Source: Nitrospirota bacterium
GTDB lineage: Bacteria > Nitrospirota > Thermodesulfovibrionia > Thermodesulfovibrionales > Dissulfurispiraceae
Length of the DNA: 64,000 bases
Assembly (NCBI GenBank): GCA_963710375.1
Contig: CAVPZX010000008.1
Span: forward strand, 192,001 to 256,000
Direction: 5' to 3'
Shown: positions 15,168 through 53,682 of the stretch, in pieces
How positions within the stretch are numbered: the first letter of the stretch is position 1
Layout of the letters: every line of letters starts with the position of its first letter
Notes under the pieces: generated by a model
What the model saw: the letters and a program-made list of their open reading frames with translations, nothing else
Databases searched by the model: none
What the model was told of the DNA's origin: nothing
Position numbers and translations under genes: made by a program

Positions 15168-15362
15168 TAACCCACATTATTAATAAATTTATACAAGGAG
15201 CAGGCGGGACATGGTGCTGAGCGGACTTTGACAGCCTAAGTGACACCAAGGATGGTGACACAGGCTGTCATAGCCTCGGAGCAAGGCTGGACGCCTCGCG
15301 AGAATGAGTGAAGCACTGTGGCCTGACTGCTCCTTGTATAAATTTATTAATAATGTGGGTTA
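15168..15362. mobile_element. MITE-like fold-back element (195 bp) with 36-bp perfect terminal inverted repeats
   Basis: taacccacattattaataaatttatacaaggagcag ... ctgctccttgtataaatttattaataatgtgggtta; internal hairpin gacagcct..aggctgtc; TA at both ends. Confidence 0.7.
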
Positions 15363-18557: not shown

Positions 18558-19950
18558 TTTTTTTATAGACCGGCAATTCTACAGTAAAGGTGGTACCGAC
18601 ACCTACCATGCTTTCCACCCTGATATCTCCTTTGTGCTTCTTGATAATTCCGTAGCTGACCGACAGCCCGAGCCCTGTCCCCCCCTCTCCCTTGGTGCTG
18701 AAGAACGGGTCGAATATGTGAGGCAGGAATTCGCGAGGTATTCCCTTTCCTGTATCCATGACCTTGATCTCCACAGAATCCCCGCCGCTCCCAAGCCTGG
18801 TTCCCAAAAAGAGCGTCTTGCCGGCCTCCATTGATTGTACCGCATTGGTGATAAGATTCACCATGACCTGCAGTATCTGGTACTCATCGATTAAGACATC
18901 TGGGAGATCCGGGACGAAGTCCAACTTAGTTTTGATATTGGAGATGTCGAGCATGTTTTGCATAATCTTGAGAGTCTTATGCATTACCGCATTGATGTCG
19001 GTCTCTTTCAGGTGGGCCTCTTTTGGTTTTGAGAAGTCAATCAAGTTTTTTATAATTTCCTTTATCCTCTCTGTCTCCTTCTCGACCTTATCCATGAATT
19101 CAATTCTCTGGTCCTTGTCCAGCTTATCATACATTTCAGCATAGGTCTGCGCCATCATTGAAATGTTATTCAGGGGGTTTGTCAATTCATGTGCCACGCC
19201 GGCAGTGAGTATTCCAAGGGACGCAAGCTTTTTGGACTGGATAAGGTCCTCTTCACGGTTCCTCAGTTCCTCGGACATTGAATTGATAGCTGCCATGACC
19301 GAACCGAATTCATCATCCGGAATTGCGCCCTCGATTCTCTTGAAATTGCCCTTGGATATCGATTTTGCAAGCTTCTCTATCTCCCTCAACGATAGCAGAA
19401 TCTTCTGAGAAATAAAATGGCTCACAAAAACAGCGCATATGAGAATCACCCAGAATGAGTAGAAAAGTATGAGCTTCGAGCGTGATATAATGTCATTTTC
19501 CGCTTTCCTCTCAAGACGGGTGATGGTATCTGAAAATTCACGCAGCATTTTACCTTCCGCACTTAACTTTGAGTTAAGGACGGGATCACTGTGAGAATTA
19601 TGCTTCACTTCATTCACGATATCGGAGTAATGATTCAAATGTGATTTAAGCAATACAAAGTTGTTCTCTCCAACACCACGGATAATGTCCCTGCTTGCGC
19701 TATCCAGCGATTGCTGGGCCTTCTCTATCTTCTCCTGGATATCGGAAAGAAAGTCCTGCTTATGGAAAATGAAATAGTTTTTCTCTGTAAGCCGCATTTC
19801 GAGAAAAGTAGCGTTCAGGTCATCCGCTATCTCAACAAATCTCAGCTTTGTCTGCATTTGATTGAGATTCTGCATTGCAAAAAAACCTATCAGCAATATC
19901 AGCCCGATATTGACTACATTGGAAAGTATAATTTTACTTTCTATCTTCAT
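18550..19950 (-). CDS. Membrane sensor histidine kinase (2 TM, extracytoplasmic helical sensor, HAMP, HisKA, HATPase)
   Basis: GVAHELTNPLNNI, FDPFFSTK, GTGLGL; ATG at 19950 overlaps the upstream TGA (ATGA). Confidence 0.92.
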   Translation of the reverse strand: MKIESKIILSNVVNIGLILLIGFFAMQNLNQMQTKLRFVEIADDLNATFLEMRLTEKNYFIFHKQDFLSDIQEKIEKAQQSLDSASRDIIRGVGENNFVLLKSHLNHYSDIVNEVKHNSHSDPVLNSKLSAEGKMLREFSDTITRLERKAENDIISRSKLILFYSFWVILICAVFVSHFISQKILLSLREIEKLAKSISKGNFKRIEGAIPDDEFGSVMAAINSMSEELRNREEDLIQSKKLASLGILTAGVAHELTNPLNNISMMAQTYAEMYDKLDKDQRIEFMDKVEKETERIKEIIKNLIDFSKPKEAHLKETDINAVMHKTLKIMQNMLDISNIKTKLDFVPDLPDVLIDEYQILQVMVNLITNAVQSMEAGKTLFLGTRLGSGGDSVEIKVMDTGKGIPREFLPHIFDPFFSTKGEGGTGLGLSVSYGIIKKHKGDIRVESMVGVGTTFTVELPVYKKTG

Positions 19951-21149
19951 CCAGGTACAGGGCACCTGGGGACTTCGGCTTGTTCATTTCTTACCGGCAT
20001 ATACCATAACCATCCGTCTATTGTCATCAATACTCCGGCTATGATCAAAAAACCGTCGATGGCTGTCAGAATACTGAAACCGAAATAGTGTATCAACCCT
20101 AACCCGAACCCCACAAAGGAAACCCCTGTCCTGATAAAAGCGAGCCCTGTCCTCGCCCTTGCATATATGGTGCGGTAGCAAGCAGCAACTGTACGTTGTG
20201 CCGCCAGAACATTTCTTTCACGCGCCAGATGGGTACGCTCCCTGCTGGAAGGCGAAGGATACAAAATGGTGCAGTGGTCCGCAAGAAAATCACCGAGACG
20301 GGCAAGCATAGTCTGTTTGGCAGGCAGGTATGCACCGGCCTGATCAATAAAATGATAGTTCTCAAGAAATTGCACGGTTGCCGCAGTCACTTCTACAAGC
20401 GTCTGCTCTTCGGGAGGCGTCATTCTCGATCTCCTTATTTTCAAATAAGCGAAGAGACCGAAGAGTGCAAGCAAAAACCCGGCTGCCATGACCCCGAATA
20501 AGAAATAAACGCGCGTCAACCTGTAATGGCGAATAAGTATGTCCGACACTGCGATAAGCCGCAACCCCCATCTGAGAAAAGAAAAGCCGGTCCTGGCCAT
20601 TGCCAGGTCGGTCCTGTAACATGCGAGCCGCGTCCTCCATTGGGCCATTGTGTTACGCCAGAAAGCCAGCCCGGTCCTTTCGGTTCCGATGAGATAGCCC
20701 GGCTTTTCATGCAGAAAATCCTGGATGAACCATTGTATATCCTCGCCGAGCGCCACCCAGTATTCATACTTCTCCGCCTTTATAAACGTTTTTACTTCGT
20801 CATGAACAGCAGGATCTGTTGGGTCATTCGCCGCTATGACCACCGTATCACCGTCTATAATAACCGGAAACCACTGATATATCGACAGTCTCTCCCCATC
20901 CAAACCCGTCAGCAGTTCAGGCGGGATCGGCATCCGCTCATCATATTCCAAAAAGGGACAGTGGTAATGATTAGAAAGCGCCTGCAGCAGAATATGTTTA
21001 GGTATGCGATACTCCGAGATAAGGATGCTTTCCACATCGATACCCCTGGCGATAGCTGCGCGTTCAGCATCGCAAATTCTATCCTCGGTCAGTACACCCC
21101 AACCGATCAGATCACTGAATTTCTTGGAAGCAATGTTATCAACGCTCAT
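19947..21149 (-). CDS. Membrane protein: GspE_N/MshEN-like domain plus 2 DUF202-like repeats (paralog C)
   Basis: LIGWGVLTE..ALSNHYHCPFLEY..WFP..IAANDP; RTGLAFWRN..RTDLAMARTG and RTHLARERN..ARTGLAFIRTG, each followed by a TM hairpin. Confidence 0.75.
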   Translation of the reverse strand: MSVDNIASKKFSDLIGWGVLTEDRICDAERAAIARGIDVESILISEYRIPKHILLQALSNHYHCPFLEYDERMPIPPELLTGLDGERLSIYQWFPVIIDGDTVVIAANDPTDPAVHDEVKTFIKAEKYEYWVALGEDIQWFIQDFLHEKPGYLIGTERTGLAFWRNTMAQWRTRLACYRTDLAMARTGFSFLRWGLRLIAVSDILIRHYRLTRVYFLFGVMAAGFLLALFGLFAYLKIRRSRMTPPEEQTLVEVTAATVQFLENYHFIDQAGAYLPAKQTMLARLGDFLADHCTILYPSPSSRERTHLARERNVLAAQRTVAACYRTIYARARTGLAFIRTGVSFVGFGLGLIHYFGFSILTAIDGFLIIAGVLMTIDGWLWYMPVRNEQAEVPRCPVPG

Positions 21150-22845
21150 CACTACTGAACACCACCTTGCCCCATGAACGGGCCGGTACACCGTAATCAG
21201 GTATTATAAGCTCCATTTCTCCATAACAGTACGGGTACTGTTTCCTTATTTTTTCCGCAGGGAAATGCCAGTACATTCCATCGATAAAGAGTGCCAATCC
21301 AACCATTATTAGCGACATATTAAATACGGTCCAGGCTAAATTGCCCGTGCCGAAGTAGACAAGGAGTTCCATGCCTACCGCGGCTATGCCGATTCCGGTC
21401 CTGATAATAGCCAGGCCGGTCCTCGACCGCGCCATTACCGTCCGCAGTCTGGCCATAACGTTTCTTCTATCAGCCAGCATGGTCCTGTCGAGGGCAAGAC
21501 CTGTAGTGGCCCAGATACCGGGGGCGTAAGACGGCCTGACCTGTGGAACGCACTTGTAATCAGAATCGGGCTGCTTCATCGCCGGAGGAAAGACAAAATC
21601 CCATATACTCTGTTTAGCCTGGGTCTTCCTGACTAAATCAAAGCTTATCGAACCGGCACGTCGGCCCGGTAAATACCAATAAAATCCTTCTGCCGCCATT
21701 GCAATGCCTGCCATAATAAGGGCAGCGTCAAAAAAAGTCCATGGCCCGGGGCGGAACTGACGCAATAGTCCAATACCGAATCCGCCACACGCAACACCCG
21801 TTCTGGTAAATGCCAGCCCGGTGCGTGCCCTCGCCATTTTTGTCCGGAAGCCTGCCAGCATTGTCCTTTCTTCGGCAAAGTCAGTTCTGTCACTGGCAAG
21901 GAACCTGCGCCTCATTACCGGAGACAGATTGCTCCATCTGGAACGCAGAGCAGCAGCCTCCTCTATATGATCAGTACGTCTAAATACAGGATTGTCACCG
22001 GGATTCACCACTTCCAGCACCGTGGTCCCCCATGTCGGTTCAGTGCCGTTAAAATCAAATGCTTTTCCCCCTGATTTCCGGGCAGGCAGATACCATAGCA
22101 AGCCGTCAACAGTCATAATGATGCCTGAAATTAATAATGCCGCTTCGAACACAGTCAATAAACCTACACCCAGAATCCTGAAAAGCACTATTGCGATAGC
22201 AATAAAAGCTACGCCTGTGCGGAAAAAGGCGAGTCCGGTCCTGCCCTTTGACAGAGCTGTCCTGATACAAGCCATCAAAGAGCGCCTGTCAGCCAGAAAT
22301 GTTCTCACTTTGGCCAAAGGCGTCCTGCCTGCGGTGGAGGGGAAATGGGGGTTCACATCAAAGTTATGTTCGACAATCCTTACAATATCCGGAGGCAAGG
22401 CAATAATAAAGTTAACCTTTTCAACCCGCAGGGTATCTTTGATATCCTTAACCAGGTCGGAATCGGAAGGGTCATACATAATTACCTCGGCGCGCTTTCC
22501 CCCCACATAAATGGGAAACCAAAGTTGGCGTTTGAGTTTTTCCATGTCAAGACGCATGGTAATAAAATATGAAGACAAGCCGCTCTCATCGTATTCGACA
22601 AAAGGGAAATCGAGATGCATTGTGAACGCCCTTCGGGACGGTATGATAGTCTCATCATATTCGACAAAAGGACAGTGGTAGAATTCCGAAAGGCAGAACA
22701 ATATTTCGTGCTTAGGAATTCCCTTTTCAATCAAACATTCTTCAGGGTATGTGCCAGATGCAACTGATTCACGTATGCACTCATCCAACGCGCTTTCGGT
22801 GATAACGCCTCTTCTTATAAGCCGCTCAAATTTAACGTTCAGCAT
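21139..22845 (-). CDS. Membrane protein: GspE_N/MshEN-like domain plus 3 DUF202-like repeats (paralog B)
   Basis: Colinear close paralog of 22969-24603; three RTxLAxxRT..RTG plus TM-hairpin units. Confidence 0.78.
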   Translation of the reverse strand: MLNVKFERLIRRGVITESALDECIRESVASGTYPEECLIEKGIPKHEILFCLSEFYHCPFVEYDETIIPSRRAFTMHLDFPFVEYDESGLSSYFITMRLDMEKLKRQLWFPIYVGGKRAEVIMYDPSDSDLVKDIKDTLRVEKVNFIIALPPDIVRIVEHNFDVNPHFPSTAGRTPLAKVRTFLADRRSLMACIRTALSKGRTGLAFFRTGVAFIAIAIVLFRILGVGLLTVFEAALLISGIIMTVDGLLWYLPARKSGGKAFDFNGTEPTWGTTVLEVVNPGDNPVFRRTDHIEEAAALRSRWSNLSPVMRRRFLASDRTDFAEERTMLAGFRTKMARARTGLAFTRTGVACGGFGIGLLRQFRPGPWTFFDAALIMAGIAMAAEGFYWYLPGRRAGSISFDLVRKTQAKQSIWDFVFPPAMKQPDSDYKCVPQVRPSYAPGIWATTGLALDRTMLADRRNVMARLRTVMARSRTGLAIIRTGIGIAAVGMELLVYFGTGNLAWTVFNMSLIMVGLALFIDGMYWHFPAEKIRKQYPYCYGEMELIIPDYGVPARSWGKVVFSSDER

Positions 22846-22968
22846 AGCAATAGTTTTTCAGCTTCCAGACTCGCCGGCCATTTTCATGCCAATGGTTATT
22901 ATAAATGATATAGTTCTCATAATAAAACACTTTCTCTTTCGGATAATGCATCCGTCACATCATGCACC

Positions 22969-24603
22969 CTAGTCATTATCGAACACCAACTTTTTCCATG
23001 AACTTGCCGGTTTCCCGTAATCAGGTATCGGGATTTCCATGTCTCCATAACAGTACGGGTACTGCTTTCTAATTTTCTCGGCCGGAATATGCCAGTAGTA
23101 CCCGTCTGCCATAGATGCCAGCCCGGTCACTATCAGTATTACATTGAATATTGTCCAGGCAATATTGCCTGTGCCGAAGAAAACAAGGAGTTCCGTGCCG
23201 ACCGCAGATATGCCTATTCCTGTTCTGACGAGTGCCAGGCCGGTCCTTGACCGCGCCATGACCGTCCGCAGCCTCGTCATGACGTTCCTCCTGTCAGCGA
23301 GCATAGTCCTTTCGAGGGCAAGTCCCGTAGTAGCCCATATGCCCTTAGAATGAGACTGCCTGACAGGTGGAATACATTGATACTCCGAACCAGGGTGTTT
23401 CAGTGCCGGAGGGAAAAGAAAATCCCATATGTTCTTTCCTGACTCCACCTTGCAGATTGCTTCCAAACTTGCAGCACCTGCATGGCGGCCCGGGACATAC
23501 CAGTAAAACCCCTCGGCTGCCATTGCAAGGCCGACGATAATAAGCGCGGCATCAAAGAAAGTCCATGGCCCGGGGCGGAACTGGCGCAATAGTGCGATAC
23601 CAAATCCGATAAATATAACGCCGGTGCGCGTAAATGCCAGCCCGGTACGCGCCATGGCCATCCAGGTCCGGTAGTATACGTGTATCGTCCTTTCTTCGGC
23701 AAAATCCGTCCTGTCGCTCGCAAGGAACCTGCGCCTCATGACCGGGGACAGGTTGCTCCATCGGGAGCGGAGAGCCGCCGCCCCTTCCACATGGCCGGTA
23801 CGGGTAAAAAGAGGGCTGTCACCGGGATTCGCCACTTCAAGAACAGTAGTTCCCCACGTAGGTTCGGTAGAAGTGCAATCGAACACTGTTTTGCCTGCTT
23901 TCCGGGTGGGCAGATACCATAGCAGGCCGTCAACAGTCATAATGATGCCTGATATTAACAATGGGAGTTCAAACAAGGTCAGAAGCCCTATACCAAAAAT
24001 CCTGAAAAGCGTAACGGCAATGGACAGGAAGGCGATGCCGGTGCGGATGAAGGCCAGTCCTGTTCTGCCTTTTGCCTGGGAGGTCCTGGTGCAAGCCGTC
24101 AAAGAACGTCTGTCAGCCAGATATGTTCTCACTTTGGCCAAAGCCGTCCTGCCGGCTGAGGCCGGGAAATGGGGATTCACATCGAAGTTGTGCTCGATGA
24201 TCCTCACGAGGTCAGACGGCATGGCTGCAACGAAATCGATATCCTGAACCATAAGTGTATCTTTGACGTCTTGAATTACATAAGGGTCGAAAGGACGATA
24301 GGCTATTACCTCGGCGCGCCCTTTACTGACAGCAAGGGGAAACCAGAGATTCCGTTTGAGTTTCTCCATATTGAGACGCCTGGTGAGAAAAAAGGAGGCA
24401 ATGACGCTCTCATCGTATTCGACAAAAGGACAACCGTAGAATTCCGCAAAGGAAAGCAATATCTCGTGCTTCGGAACACCTTTTTCTATCAACCATTCTT
24501 CAGGATATTTGCCCGATGCAAGTGACTCTTTTAGCCCCTCACTCAATTCCCCTTCAGTGAGAATTCCTCTTTTTACCAGTCGCTCGAATTTTTTATCATA
24601 CAT
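22969..24603 (-). CDS. Membrane protein: GspE_N/MshEN-like domain plus 3 DUF202-like repeats (paralog A)
   Basis: RLVKRGILTEGEL..AEFYGCPFVEY..WFP; three Arg-ladder/TM-hairpin units ending (D/E)GxxW(Y/H)xP. Confidence 0.78.
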   Translation of the reverse strand: MYDKKFERLVKRGILTEGELSEGLKESLASGKYPEEWLIEKGVPKHEILLSFAEFYGCPFVEYDESVIASFFLTRRLNMEKLKRNLWFPLAVSKGRAEVIAYRPFDPYVIQDVKDTLMVQDIDFVAAMPSDLVRIIEHNFDVNPHFPASAGRTALAKVRTYLADRRSLTACTRTSQAKGRTGLAFIRTGIAFLSIAVTLFRIFGIGLLTLFELPLLISGIIMTVDGLLWYLPTRKAGKTVFDCTSTEPTWGTTVLEVANPGDSPLFTRTGHVEGAAALRSRWSNLSPVMRRRFLASDRTDFAEERTIHVYYRTWMAMARTGLAFTRTGVIFIGFGIALLRQFRPGPWTFFDAALIIVGLAMAAEGFYWYVPGRHAGAASLEAICKVESGKNIWDFLFPPALKHPGSEYQCIPPVRQSHSKGIWATTGLALERTMLADRRNVMTRLRTVMARSRTGLALVRTGIGISAVGTELLVFFGTGNIAWTIFNVILIVTGLASMADGYYWHIPAEKIRKQYPYCYGDMEIPIPDYGKPASSWKKLVFDND

Positions 24604-24615
24604 ATGGAAATTTAT

Positions 24616-24690
<75 letters not shown>

Positions 24691-24766
24691 AAATCAATGA
24701 GTTAGCGATATTATAACACACAAACATCATAAAAATATGCAATCATAACAAGAAACTCATAAGGAA

Positions 24767-24940
24767 AGGATCGGCAGGGGCAGGCTGTTTATCGGAGCAC
24801 TGAAACTACCTTTATTGCCAGCTACAATGCGGTATAGTCTCCATGGTCATACCAATTCTCAGGTGGGGCTCGGCGTTACTCGCCCCTGTTACAGCAGACC
24901 CGTGCATTGCTCCGATAAACAGCCTGCCCCTGCCGATCCT
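24767..24940. repeat. Fold-back element copy 1 (33-bp perfect inverted arms around a 108-bp core)
   Basis: aggatcggcaggggcaggctgtttatcggagca ... tgctccgataaacagcctgcccctgccgatcct. Confidence 0.8.
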
Positions 24941-24966
24941 ATAATCTGATTCTATAAAATAAAAAG

Positions 24967-25140
24967 CAGGATAAGGGGAACACTTGTTTTTCGACGCGAT
25001 GCACGGGTCTACTGTAACAGGGGCGAGTAACGCCGAGCCCCACCTGAAAATGGAGTCAAGTATAGCTGCTGTGAAAACATCGGTATTTGCTTACAAAGGT
25101 AGTTTCAGCGCGTCGAAAAACAGGTGCTCCCCTTATCCTG
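24967..25140. repeat. Fold-back element copy 2, inverted relative to copy 1 (32-bp arms, 110-bp core)
   Basis: caggataaggggaacacttgtttttcgacgcg ... cgcgtcgaaaaacaggtgctccccttatcctg; core shares a 48/49-nt block and a 14/14-nt block with copy 1. Confidence 0.8.
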
Positions 25141-25149
25141 ACTTCCTTA

Positions 25150-27300
25150 TTATTCTATTTGCTGTTCGATCAGCTCAGCAGTATGCATAACTTTGATCGC
25201 AGAGCCTTCTTTGTCAAAACCTCCCTTTATCTGCATAACGCAGCCGGGACAATCCATGGCAACAATGGAAGCGGATGTGTCCCTGATGTTTTTGAGCTTC
25301 CGTTGCAGTATGGGGGCGGAAATTTCAGGGAGCTTGAGTGAATAAGTGCCTCCCATGCCGCAGCACATGTCCGACTCAAACATTTCGACCAGGTCAAATC
25401 CTGATTTTTTCAGAAGTTCCCTCGGCTGATCATAGACATGCATTGTTCTCTTCAGATGGCAGGAATCGTGATAAGTGAGCAAAGGGGATGACTTTTCGGG
25501 GAGACTGTTCTTAAAGGTCAAGCGGCCTTCATCAGCCAGATTCTTGACTAAGGTGGAGAAATCCATTGCCAGCGCAGAAACCTCACGTGCCTGGGGCAAC
25601 CAATCGTTTTTGCCAAGACTCTCAAAAGTGTTGATGAATTCGTGTTTCAGTGCCACAGTGCAAGTCGGACAGGCTGAGACAATGTGCTGGACGTCTTCTT
25701 TAAGCAGGGCTTTGATGTTGTCGATTGCATTTTGGCCCGCAACCTCGTATGCTCCGCTATAGCGCGCGGGCGCTCCACAGCAAGTCTGCTCTTCAGGGAA
25801 TACGACCTCTATTCCTGCCTTATTCAATATCTTCACAACTGCACTGCCCATATCCGGATATGCAAAGTCTATGAGGCATCCGGCAAAAAAAGCGACCTTG
25901 ACCTTCTTTTTAGATATTTGGGACTGACCGATTTCTTTAAATTTGTCCCTGAAGGGCACAGGGGCTATGGACGGAAGGCTTCTGCTCTCGGTAAGGTTCG
26001 ACAGAAACATCGGGAGGTGGCGGATAAACCCCCCCTTCGCAAAAGGTTTTTGCGTTAACGAGGCGGTGCGGAGCATCGAATGGAAGAGCCTGCGGTTGTT
26101 CACCACAGAGAAGATAGCCTTCTGGGCGATCGATTGCCCCGCGTCCTTTACGATACGGCGCCTGATTTCGAGTATCAGTTCGGGGATGTCGATCTTTGCC
26201 GGGCAGACCTCCTTGCAATTGCCGCACTGGATGCAGAGGCTCTGAATGTCTTCAGATTGCTTCATTTCATCAAACCATGCAGTGAGTATTGTGCCGATGC
26301 CGCCCGTATAGACCTTGCCGAAGACATGACCGCCAACGAGTCTGAAGACAGGACAGACGTTGAGGCACGAGGCGCAGCGTATGCACTGAAGCGCCTGTCT
26401 GAACTTTGGGTCATTCGCCATCTCTGTCCTGCGGTTGTCCATCAGAATGATATGGAGGTCTTTCAACGACCCATCAGTGTTAGGAGTCCGGCCGGTGATA
26501 ATAGATACATAACTGGTCAGCAACTGGGACGTAGCACTCTTCGGAAGCGCTGTCAGAATGGGGACAATGTCTTTAAAGTCAGCAACAAGTTTTTCGATAC
26601 CGATAATTGCGACATGGATCTTTGGAAGTGTAGTGACAAGCCGTGCATTCCCTTCATTGGTGACAATTACTATGCTGCCGGTCTCGGCCACTGCAATGTT
26701 GGCTCCCGAGATACCCATGTCGGCAGTAAGAAACTTTGTGCGGAGCCTGGCCCGCGCTACCTTGACGAGTTGAGGGATGTCAGTGCTAAGGCGCTCATCG
26801 ACCTCTTTGCTAAAAAGCTCTGCGACCTCCTCTTTGGTCATGTGGATTGCCGGAAGTACCATGTGTGAGGGCCTCTGCCCAGCAAGCTGGATGATCCATT
26901 CCCCAAGGTCGGTCTCATTTACAGAGATACCATGGTCTTCGAGATAAGGGTTCAAATGGATCTCTTCCGACGCCATGGACTTGGATTTGACAACCTTCCT
27001 GACGCCGTTCTTCCTGGCGAGGTTGACTATATATTCCTTAATTTTTTCAGGATCTGTCGTCCTGAAGACCTTAGCTCCTTTCGCCTCGGCATTCCTGGTA
27101 AAAACCTCTGCCAGTAGATCGAGATGAGACGCAGCATACGATTTCAGTTCTGCGATCCTGGCCCTGAGGGCCTCAAAATCTATCCCTTCGTAAGCCTTGG
27201 CACGACTCGTCCTGTAGGCTTCCGAAAACCTGCCGAGCGCGCCCGTCAGGTTCGCATTCTGCAGGGCCGTATTTATGGATTCTCTGAATTCTTTTTTCAT
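25150..27300 (-). CDS. lutB: L-lactate dehydrogenase large subunit (LutB/LldH type: LUD, 2x4Fe-4S, two CCG domains)
   Basis: KSKSMASEE, ETDLGEWIIQL, PSHMVLPAIH, CIRCASCLNVCP, QTCCGAP, CCGMGG. Confidence 0.9.
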   Translation of the reverse strand: MKKEFRESINTALQNANLTGALGRFSEAYRTSRAKAYEGIDFEALRARIAELKSYAASHLDLLAEVFTRNAEAKGAKVFRTTDPEKIKEYIVNLARKNGVRKVVKSKSMASEEIHLNPYLEDHGISVNETDLGEWIIQLAGQRPSHMVLPAIHMTKEEVAELFSKEVDERLSTDIPQLVKVARARLRTKFLTADMGISGANIAVAETGSIVIVTNEGNARLVTTLPKIHVAIIGIEKLVADFKDIVPILTALPKSATSQLLTSYVSIITGRTPNTDGSLKDLHIILMDNRRTEMANDPKFRQALQCIRCASCLNVCPVFRLVGGHVFGKVYTGGIGTILTAWFDEMKQSEDIQSLCIQCGNCKEVCPAKIDIPELILEIRRRIVKDAGQSIAQKAIFSVVNNRRLFHSMLRTASLTQKPFAKGGFIRHLPMFLSNLTESRSLPSIAPVPFRDKFKEIGQSQISKKKVKVAFFAGCLIDFAYPDMGSAVVKILNKAGIEVVFPEEQTCCGAPARYSGAYEVAGQNAIDNIKALLKEDVQHIVSACPTCTVALKHEFINTFESLGKNDWLPQAREVSALAMDFSTLVKNLADEGRLTFKNSLPEKSSPLLTYHDSCHLKRTMHVYDQPRELLKKSGFDLVEMFESDMCCGMGGTYSLKLPEISAPILQRKLKNIRDTSASIVAMDCPGCVMQIKGGFDKEGSAIKVMHTAELIEQQIE

Positions 27301-29795: not shown

Positions 29796-29906
29796 AAAAA
29801 AGGCAGGTTAAGGTTAAGGTTAAGGTTAAGAAAAAGAAAAAAGACAAGGATAAAGTCTTAACTTTATTTTCTCAATCTCAACCTTAACCTTAACCTGCCT
29901 TTTTTT
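29796..29906. repeat. (GGTTAA)n inverted hexamer element, copy 2 (terminator-like)
   Basis: aaaaaaggcaggttaaggttaaggttaagg ... ccttaaccttaacctgcctttttt. Confidence 0.85.
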
Positions 29907-32761: not shown

Positions 32762-32861
32762 AAAAAAAGCAGGTTAAGGCTAAGGTTGAGGTTAAGATAA
32801 AGTCTTAACTTTAAATTCTTGACCTAACCCTTAACCTTAACCTTAGCCTTAACCTGCTTTT
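32762..32861. repeat. (GGTTAA)n inverted hexamer element, copy 3
   Basis: aaaagcaggttaaggctaaggttgaggttaag ... cttaaccttaaccttagccttaacctgctttt; gataaagtcttaacttta segment shared with copy 2. Confidence 0.85.
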
Positions 32862-53480: not shown

Positions 53481-53682
53481 AATTCAGACAGTGTAATGAA
53501 GGATGTGACTCTGAAGCGAATCGCGGAGTCCTGGTAACAGTTCTCGGGGAAGTGAGCGTCTAACAGGCGCAATGTCTGAGCCCGAAGGGCGAGTTTTGCG
53601 ACTGTAGCGAACAAGCCGTTAGAACTGTCAGGACGTAGCGCCTGAGCGCAAGAGACATATCTTTCATTACACTGTCTGAATT
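53481..53682. mobile_element. MITE/REP-like fold-back element (202 bp)
   Basis: aattcagacagtgtaatgaa ... ttcattacactgtctgaatt (20-bp perfect, extends imperfectly); nested stems gtcctg/caggac, acagttct/agaactgt, gcccgaagggc. Confidence 0.7.

Follow-up and report, generated by a model that had tools for sequence, protein, structure and literature searches.

What are the two fold-back elements that lie head to head between a tRNA gene and ldhH in a genome of the phylum Nitrospirota, and how do their arms stay paired when arm sequences differ from copy to copy? The locus lies in a window of 64,000 nucleotides (the whole stretch of DNA that was analysed, to which plain coordinates refer; G, C and L numbers are our handles for genomes, contigs and loci). 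The source genome, G000, is 98.8% complete and its contigs break mostly at unrelated repeats. A first-pass annotation had proposed a structured non-coding RNA or a non-autonomous mobile family kept by base pairing, with a core that might carry a guide-like insert.

A twin fold-back unit and its repeat family

Re-measurement upheld the anatomy described earlier: element A (24767-24940, core on the minus strand) and element B (24967-25140, plus strand) are inverted relative to each other and separated by a gap of 26 bp. The arms of A are complementary at 33/33 positions and enclose 108 nt, whereas those of B are complementary at 30/32 positions and enclose 110 nt. The 49-nt cores agree at 48/49 positions and the 14-nt 3' block is the same in both elements, with no differences. 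The 45-nt middle had been called unrelated; A and B do differ there, but the middle is not unique, being kept inside each subfamily, and whole B copies are 84-90% identical, middle included. The unit overshoots both outer arms by a few bases and extends from 24763 to 25146. Its features and neighbours are as follows.

24619-24690, minus strand: flanking tRNA gene, Gly, anticodon CCC (from sequence), start 73 bp from the unit
24763-25146, no strand: composite twin (A reversed, spacer, B), 384 bp, GGAAG-type outer tips
24767-24799, minus strand: element A 3' arm, 33 bp
24800-24813, minus strand: element A conserved 3' block
24814-24858, minus strand: element A subfamily-specific middle, without consensus fold or target match
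24859-24907, minus strand: element A conserved 49-nt core
24866-24885, minus strand: element A core hairpin, 7-bp stem with tandem G-A pairs and 6-nt loop TAACGC; IS1182 insertion site in relatives
24908-24940, minus strand: element A 5' arm, 33 bp
24940-24945, no strand assigned: -10-like hexamer of the spacer, putative promoter element, kept across twins
24941-24966, no strand: AT-rich spacer, 14-28 nt in most twins
24967-24998, plus strand: element B 5' arm, 32 bp, inner end scoring as an inward-facing IS1182-type end
24999-25047, plus strand: element B conserved 49-nt core
25021-25040, plus strand: element B core hairpin
25048-25094, plus strand: element B subfamily-specific middle
25095-25108, plus strand: element B conserved 3' block
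25109-25140, plus strand: element B 3' arm, 32 bp
25150-27300, minus strand: flanking ldhH (quinone L-lactate dehydrogenase large subunit), stop codon 3 bp from the unit

The folding z-scores were -8.0 for B and -9.5 for A, and 0/200 shuffles were equally stable. An assembly artefact could be excluded because contigs of four public DNA runs from two studies span both elements, their junctions and the spacer; they do so as overlapping pieces, none of which covers the entire stretch, and one run is possibly the source sample. No deletion or inversion joints were found in these four runs. RNA runs were absent from those listed as containing the sequence, which has no bearing on its expression. 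In the relative G007, the tRNA gene and ldhH are present without the twin unit between them. Elsewhere in the window, positions 19947-24603 (minus strand) hold three tandem paralogous genes of 414, 568 and 544 aa, the last with MshEN and DUF202 domains.

That the core belongs to a family was borne out by a genome-wide search with its 20-nt hairpin, which located 35 copies in G000. These fall into the arm subfamilies A (2), B (7), C (16) and D (10), and further arm types (E and others) are present in relatives. All 35 cores are intergenic, between long open reading frames, and all 35 copies have terminal inverted repeats of 29-43 bp. The interior between the arms measures 104-121 nt and is the most conserved part of the element, rather than the arms. 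Its 20-nt hairpin is conserved and co-varying: the stem varies yet stays paired across subfamilies, with the loop TAACG(C/T) in most copies. The head-to-head arrangement is recurrent, as 16 of the 39 A-to-B units sampled are full twins, including a second one in the source genome (G000:C8:106762-107150); the others are internal-deletion derivatives, chimeras shortened to 57-369 bp.

The family is restricted to one Nitrospirota genus among those searched. Of the nine other genomes in the genus, eight have B-like matches, and among 51 others one has a weak match; the core is found in 5/301 genomes of the order and a degenerate core pattern in 2/401 genomes of the phylum, all of them within the genus. 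Among named loci, 48/49 are titled Nitrospirota, Nitrospirae or Dissulfurispiraceae, and the sole match from elsewhere (L092) was set aside as an isolated 20-mer with no arms. The core 20-mer had 0 matches among viral contigs.

At orthologous intergenic sites, copies are present in some relatives and absent from others, and the same sites are held by different repeat families in different genomes. Rearranged forms include a chimera in which A arms enclose the interior of another family (L004 and L064 are among these swap cases) and a variant element nested inside the hairpin of an A element. G000 also contains at least four further fold-back families (120-250 bp, arms of about 30 bp, 115 elements in all; in the window at 15168-15362 and 53481-53682), one of which has ends in common with subfamily D. 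Tandem-heptamer hairpins lie at 29796-29905 and 32765-32861 of the window, and this class takes the place of the elements at the same intergenic sites elsewhere.

Bacterial MITEs such as Chunjie of Geobacter uraniireducens, Correia/NEMIS, YPAl and Bcr1 are, in the accessible portions of two reports (PMC10969869, PMC3733652), likewise shorter than 500 bp, non-coding, intergenic and present in tens of copies, with terminal inverted repeats, a stable stem-loop, movement in trans and target duplications in younger copies (here in C and D). Compared with those partial descriptions, the present family differs in that one conserved interior sits in several unrelated arm sets, the arms of 30-35 bp are near perfect and drift in mirror, and the A/B unit, a doublet joined head to head, has no duplication that could be detected. 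A search of literature listings outside ISfinder and subscription papers returned no account of this repeat family. It is apparently a MITE-type family undescribed so far, in which conservation is inverted: the core is kept and the arms are exchanged.

Mirrored arm changes and folding of one strand

The first-pass annotation had held that arms differ between copies while each pairs with its own partner. The arms of 45 A/B/E-type copies make up a helix of 32 pairs in which 96.8% of cells are paired, and covariation in the form of two-sided changes was found in 30/32 arm pairs, in agreement with that claim. Shuffled or slid controls, which leave relatedness between copies in, came nowhere near this level. 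Between the arms of these copies, no structure other than the small hairpin is predicted.

Roughly half of the arm changes within a subfamily are exactly mirrored. Mirrored identical changes numbered 26 in B, 19 in A and 37 in C, compared to 0.7, 0.5 and 1.3 expected, and 23 of the 40 distinct variants are private to one copy. In subfamily C the inverted match continues into the flanking DNA in 6/22 copies (control 0.3%). The mirrored changes point to copying from arm to arm rather than to a proven RNA function, because two independent hits are unlikely and many of the mirrored variants occur in single copies. Template switching that perfects inverted repeats has been proposed for proteobacteria, according to the accessible part of one study (PMC5941160).

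The mismatches themselves are unevenly distributed between the strands. Distinct wobble (G-U/G-T) mismatches numbered 39 on the core strand and 8 on the other (p = 5.5e-6), and the bias was present in all four neighbouring-gene contexts (13:1, 14:3, 13:2 and 11:2). C/D show it strongly (25:3), A/B/E weakly (14:5, p = 0.064). Between replichores the element copies are split 21 vs 14, without a clear bias. One strand of the element therefore folds; the data are compatible with RNA and also with single-stranded DNA, where G-T is favoured over A-C too. The one-strand bias also counts against a purely neutral account of arm pairing. Two of the further fold-back families have one-strand wobble biases of their own (4:11 and 8:1).

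Transposition footprints and candidate transposase partners

Evidence of movement is most direct for subfamilies C and D. D/F1-type ends are flanked by 8-10-bp target duplications in 19/51 cases (control 0.1%), in a set where D is mixed with another family having the same ends, and a D copy in G005 brings an 8-bp duplication at a site that is empty in G000. For the D tip, no inverted partner was found in the 80 viral loci examined of 114. Subfamily C has a direct 8-mer (at least 7/8 identical) in 8/22 copies (control 0.3%), and in 8/22 copies the 3' end of its core strand is followed at exactly 15 bp by a -35 hexamer, as compared to 1/22 for 5' ends. C is oriented relative to the promoter although its two arms are identical. 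At G000:C3:199507-199898, an F1 and a C element stand in tandem and have three copies of one 10-bp target in common.

C starts with the terminal repeat of IS1-like transposons. Its 17-bp tip was found in 24 other genomes of the order (27/301 in total), and the three inverted pairs of this tip retrieved at distances of 3.0-3.9 kb all have 8-bp duplications. The two intact reading frames scanned from these pairs are IS1-like, as judged by matches to NF033558 and PF03400 that are both below cut-off (45.9 and 51.8 bits for the IS1 model, curated cut-off 100). These transposons are putative members of the ISMhu11 subgroup. Three more of the same kind are present inside the genus; the transposons seen measure 2.9-3.9 kb and carry passenger genes and 8-bp duplications (G299:C51:16604-20468, L379; G037:C22:135442-138497, L380; G144:C102:37914-41387, L381; and L531-L533). 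Beyond the genus, 9/27 of the IS1-like ends sampled have a -35 hexamer at exactly 15 bp on their outer side. C shares with these transposons the tip, the duplication length and the spacing; they differ in that none of the six checked carries the core hairpin, and the ends of A/B and D are other.

Since the C tip is an IS1-like terminal repeat with equal duplication length and promoter spacing, the sequence comparison ties the family to a presumptive DDE transposition in trans, and subfamily C passes every sequence-based MITE test that was run. A match to the ends of a known IS family, which had been named at the outset as an argument against the proposed reading, was found for the sibling subfamily C (IS1-like) and not for A/B.

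Oriented insertion 15-17 bp upstream of sigma-A promoters, with 8-9-bp duplications, is described for TnGBS, ISLre2 and ISKra4 in the accessible part of an earlier report (PMC3942029). C resembles these elements, as far as that text describes them, in duplication and promoter spacing, whereas its partner is IS1-like and not Mutator-like. Unlike in the p-MULT promoter-targeting class, a spacing of this kind is found in C only and not in A/B, and no Mutator-type partner was found. The element-bearing genomes have no ISH6 and no matching ISKra4, and the one ISKra4 gene found in the genus belongs to G009, a genome without any A/B match. Our search of the literature, with ISfinder and subscription papers outside its scope, found no report of promoter targeting by IS1-like elements.

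The A/B twin passes the MITE tests of size, copy number, inverted ends and presence/absence. No long target duplication was found in 35 end pairs, TA on both sides occurred in 14/39 (14.1 expected, thus no excess), and A/B showed no sharp -35 position. Promoter-like sites lie within 45 bp of 9/34 A and 8/33 B ends, compared to 6-7% upstream of genes, which their intergenic location may explain. The evidence for A/B mobility is indirect, consisting of presence/absence and deletion derivatives.

Searches for a partner of A/B covered several enzyme classes. No autonomous element with the A tip was found in 317 genomes of the order, where matches beyond the genus were at background level, nor in 29 metagenome loci. 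G000 has no match to the IS1-like protein, PF05598, PF00872 or PF06782, and its multi-copy insertion sequences are IS481/IS21-like with ends unlike the element arms. The IS256, ISKra4, ISLre2-type, ISH6 and IS4/IS5 elements of the genus were rejected as partners, their ends being different from the arms. A GIY-YIG link was seen as one cassette between an F2 arm and a B arm and otherwise nowhere.

We consider it probable that this fold-back repeat family moves as a MITE by means of DDE transposases encoded elsewhere, and that its arms are kept perfect by arm-to-arm copying. The non-autonomous mobile family kept by pairing that the first-pass annotation favoured is supported by the many copies, presence/absence at orthologous sites, arm covariation and duplications in the sibling subfamilies. 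The DDE transposase would be supplied in trans, and folding of the core strand would let one arm serve as the template for the other, possibly by template switching or hairpin repair. New combinations of arm and interior may arise from insertion of one element into another followed by recombination, which could explain swaps such as L004 and L064. The A/B twin may likewise be mobilised by a borrowed transposase, with hardly any duplication left behind or none, an IS5/IS1182-type enzyme being our leading guess. Besides the negative results for A/B, further observations count against movement as a MITE: ordinary MITEs conserve their ends, whereas here the interior is conserved and its hairpin is missing from the six IS1-like transposons checked, and the one-strand G-U bias is not predicted by double-stranded transposition.

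Other explanations and the hairpin as a landing site

The strand bias raises the question of an RNA intermediate. A structured RNA copied in trans by a reverse transcriptase (retron-msr-like or SINE-like), the twin giving two RNAs from its AT-rich spacer, seems to us unlikely. The near-fixed length, the inner stem that co-varies across subfamilies, the -10-like hexamer kept in the spacer, and a wobble bias that follows the core strand regardless of neighbouring gene direction and without clear replichore bias would all fit such an RNA. As described in the accessible text of PMC6868368, retron msr-msd RNAs similarly have a short 5' hairpin and complementary ends closing a loop, with 8-30 complementary bases (the arms here are slightly longer) and 7-10-bp hairpins; as set out there, they differ from the present family, which has no long msd hairpin, no adjoining reverse transcriptase and many dispersed copies with DNA-transposon footprints. 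Among the 45 copies, no consensus pairing is seen in the middle, hence no hairpin of the msd type. No core element adjoins any of the 21 reverse transcriptase loci in the genus, and G000 and G007 have no reverse transcriptase match. Furthermore, C copies bear the DNA-transposon signature of IS1-like elements, the excess of G-T over A-C is also expected of single-stranded DNA, and the A/B/E bias taken alone is the weak one. Repeats resembling msDNA have reportedly been found in Nannocystis.

For the structured RNA of the first-pass annotation the evidence is divided: the one-strand G-U bias speaks for it, whereas an Rfam scan gave only tRNA above threshold and no family reached its gathering threshold at the elements. 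A plant miRNA model on the central palindrome scored 53 of 140 bits, below threshold. A peptide reading, with the B core as an open frame, was rejected, as copies differ by single-base indels that break the shared frame.

Single-stranded DNA could also be the folded form, in a REPIN-like hairpin whose HUH tyrosine transposase (RAYT or IS200-type) reads the inner hairpin and ignores arm sequence. We regard this as quite unlikely, although it would accommodate the one-strand folding bias, the small conserved hairpin with its fixed loop and the lack of duplications in A/B. REPINs, in the accessible part of their description (PMC3116915), share with these elements a long hairpin, compensatory changes and nesting by other, unrelated copies; their ends, however, are conserved REPs with a linked RAYT gene, while here the arms vary, the conserved palindrome is internal and no RAYT is linked. 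Of the 29 Y1 loci of the genus, none is flanked by elements on both sides (for two, the distance to an element is about 0.8-0.9 kb), the only Y1 gene of G000 carries different inverted ends of its own, and G001, with 26 cores, has no Y1 match in a genome that is 88% complete. Moreover, the 8-10-bp duplications of C and D fit staggered cuts. A RAYT-like gene at L021:901-1918 (G000:C2), with NF047646 just below cut-off, lies within its own 27-bp inverted repeats.

The conserved hairpin is also a target for other insertion sequences. An IS1182-family element (NF033551 above cut-off) is present in 21 copies in the relative G008, and 20/21 of its right ends adjoin the hairpin loop, L164 being the exception. 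These 20 insertions occurred in the canonical stem (13) and in variants (7), at least six stem variants being used. Both flanks are visible for nine copies, of which eight are in the loop with a 3-4-bp duplication, and one further loop insertion was found in a metagenome. Of the G008 copies of an IS4-family element (399 aa, NF033592 above cut-off), 5/7 lie in C-type arms, in their inner part and flanked by 9-bp duplications (L293, L297, L299, L301 and L303). A 40-bp hairpin repeat occupies the IS1182 loop position at G000:C2:213007-213232, C3:169332-169547 and L217, and small inserts in or near the loop also occur in L007, L008, L015, L197 and L534. Other IS1182-type elements of the genus lie inside a different short palindromic repeat (L123, L129, L132). 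Insertion sequences that target REPs have reportedly been found as well.

From these insertions one could argue that IS1182-type transposases, by recognising the hairpin and the inward ends of the arms, swap or mobilise the interior and leave the element to persist as a dedicated landing site; this we find very doubtful. On an IS1182-end matrix, the inner tips of B reach 15.0 and 12.8, in the top 0.01% of sampled genome 16-mers, which speaks for recognition, as does the precision of the loop insertions. The matrix is small (14 IS1182-type ends, own scores 12.3-23.1), and the A and C tips reach the top 0.5-0.9% only. In other Nitrospirota, relatives of the IS1182 element are inserted at the TAAC/CAAC ends of palindromes that we take to be attC-like, some in tandem (L250, L252, L254, L255, L262, L264, L267, L269 and L270), so that the preference predates the element; the IS4 element likewise favours these repeats, and G000, G001, G003 and G007 have no PF05598 match. 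The fold-back elements themselves were rejected as attC sites, there being no long hairpin between TAAC and the 3' block. The literature searched, with ISfinder and subscription papers outside its scope, held nothing on IS1182 at attC sites in these bacteria. IS1272/TnSha1, of the IS1182 family, is described in the accessible part of PMC4923244 as targeting hairpins without a sequence rule, cutting in stems, with deletion; by that description both elements enter hairpins, and the one here inserts at a single fixed position of the loop, leaving a 3-4-bp duplication.

The constant-variable-constant layout had suggested that the element is a scaffold RNA whose variable guide serves an RNA-guided enzyme. 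This is highly improbable and already largely refuted, because the middles are inherited within subfamilies and lack matches outside other copies: 125 middles gave 123 non-element matches, the 30 examined being short and weak (14-22 nt, E >= 0.09), phages and plasmids matched at chance level only, and no nuclease or recombinase gene recurs near 109 copies except the inserted IS1182 (IS110 and TnpB were not queried directly).

Movement as a MITE with borrowed DDE transposases and arm-to-arm copying therefore remains our preferred explanation. A bolder idea, which we hold to be doubtful, is that the interior cassette is the real unit: a strand-specific folding module that would ride in the ends of unrelated transposase families, set the direction of insertion near promoters even where the two arms are identical, and act as a sink drawing insertion sequences off genes (20/21 for IS1182 and 5/7 for IS4, in one genome). 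If true, the interior cassette would be a portable transposon decoy, made of RNA or single-stranded DNA, unlike described MITEs.

Since arm changes that mirror each other can have a mutational origin, covariation along a long stem in repeats should not be read as proving an RNA gene. The hairpin is a very precise natural IS1182 target, with one loop position in many stems, that is useful for the study of site choice. Insertion at 15 bp from -35 boxes, seen here for an IS1-like group, follows a rule described for Mutator-type enzymes (PMC3942029, accessible part). If the interior is a functional folded strand common to different transposon ends, the family would represent a new design of non-autonomous element.
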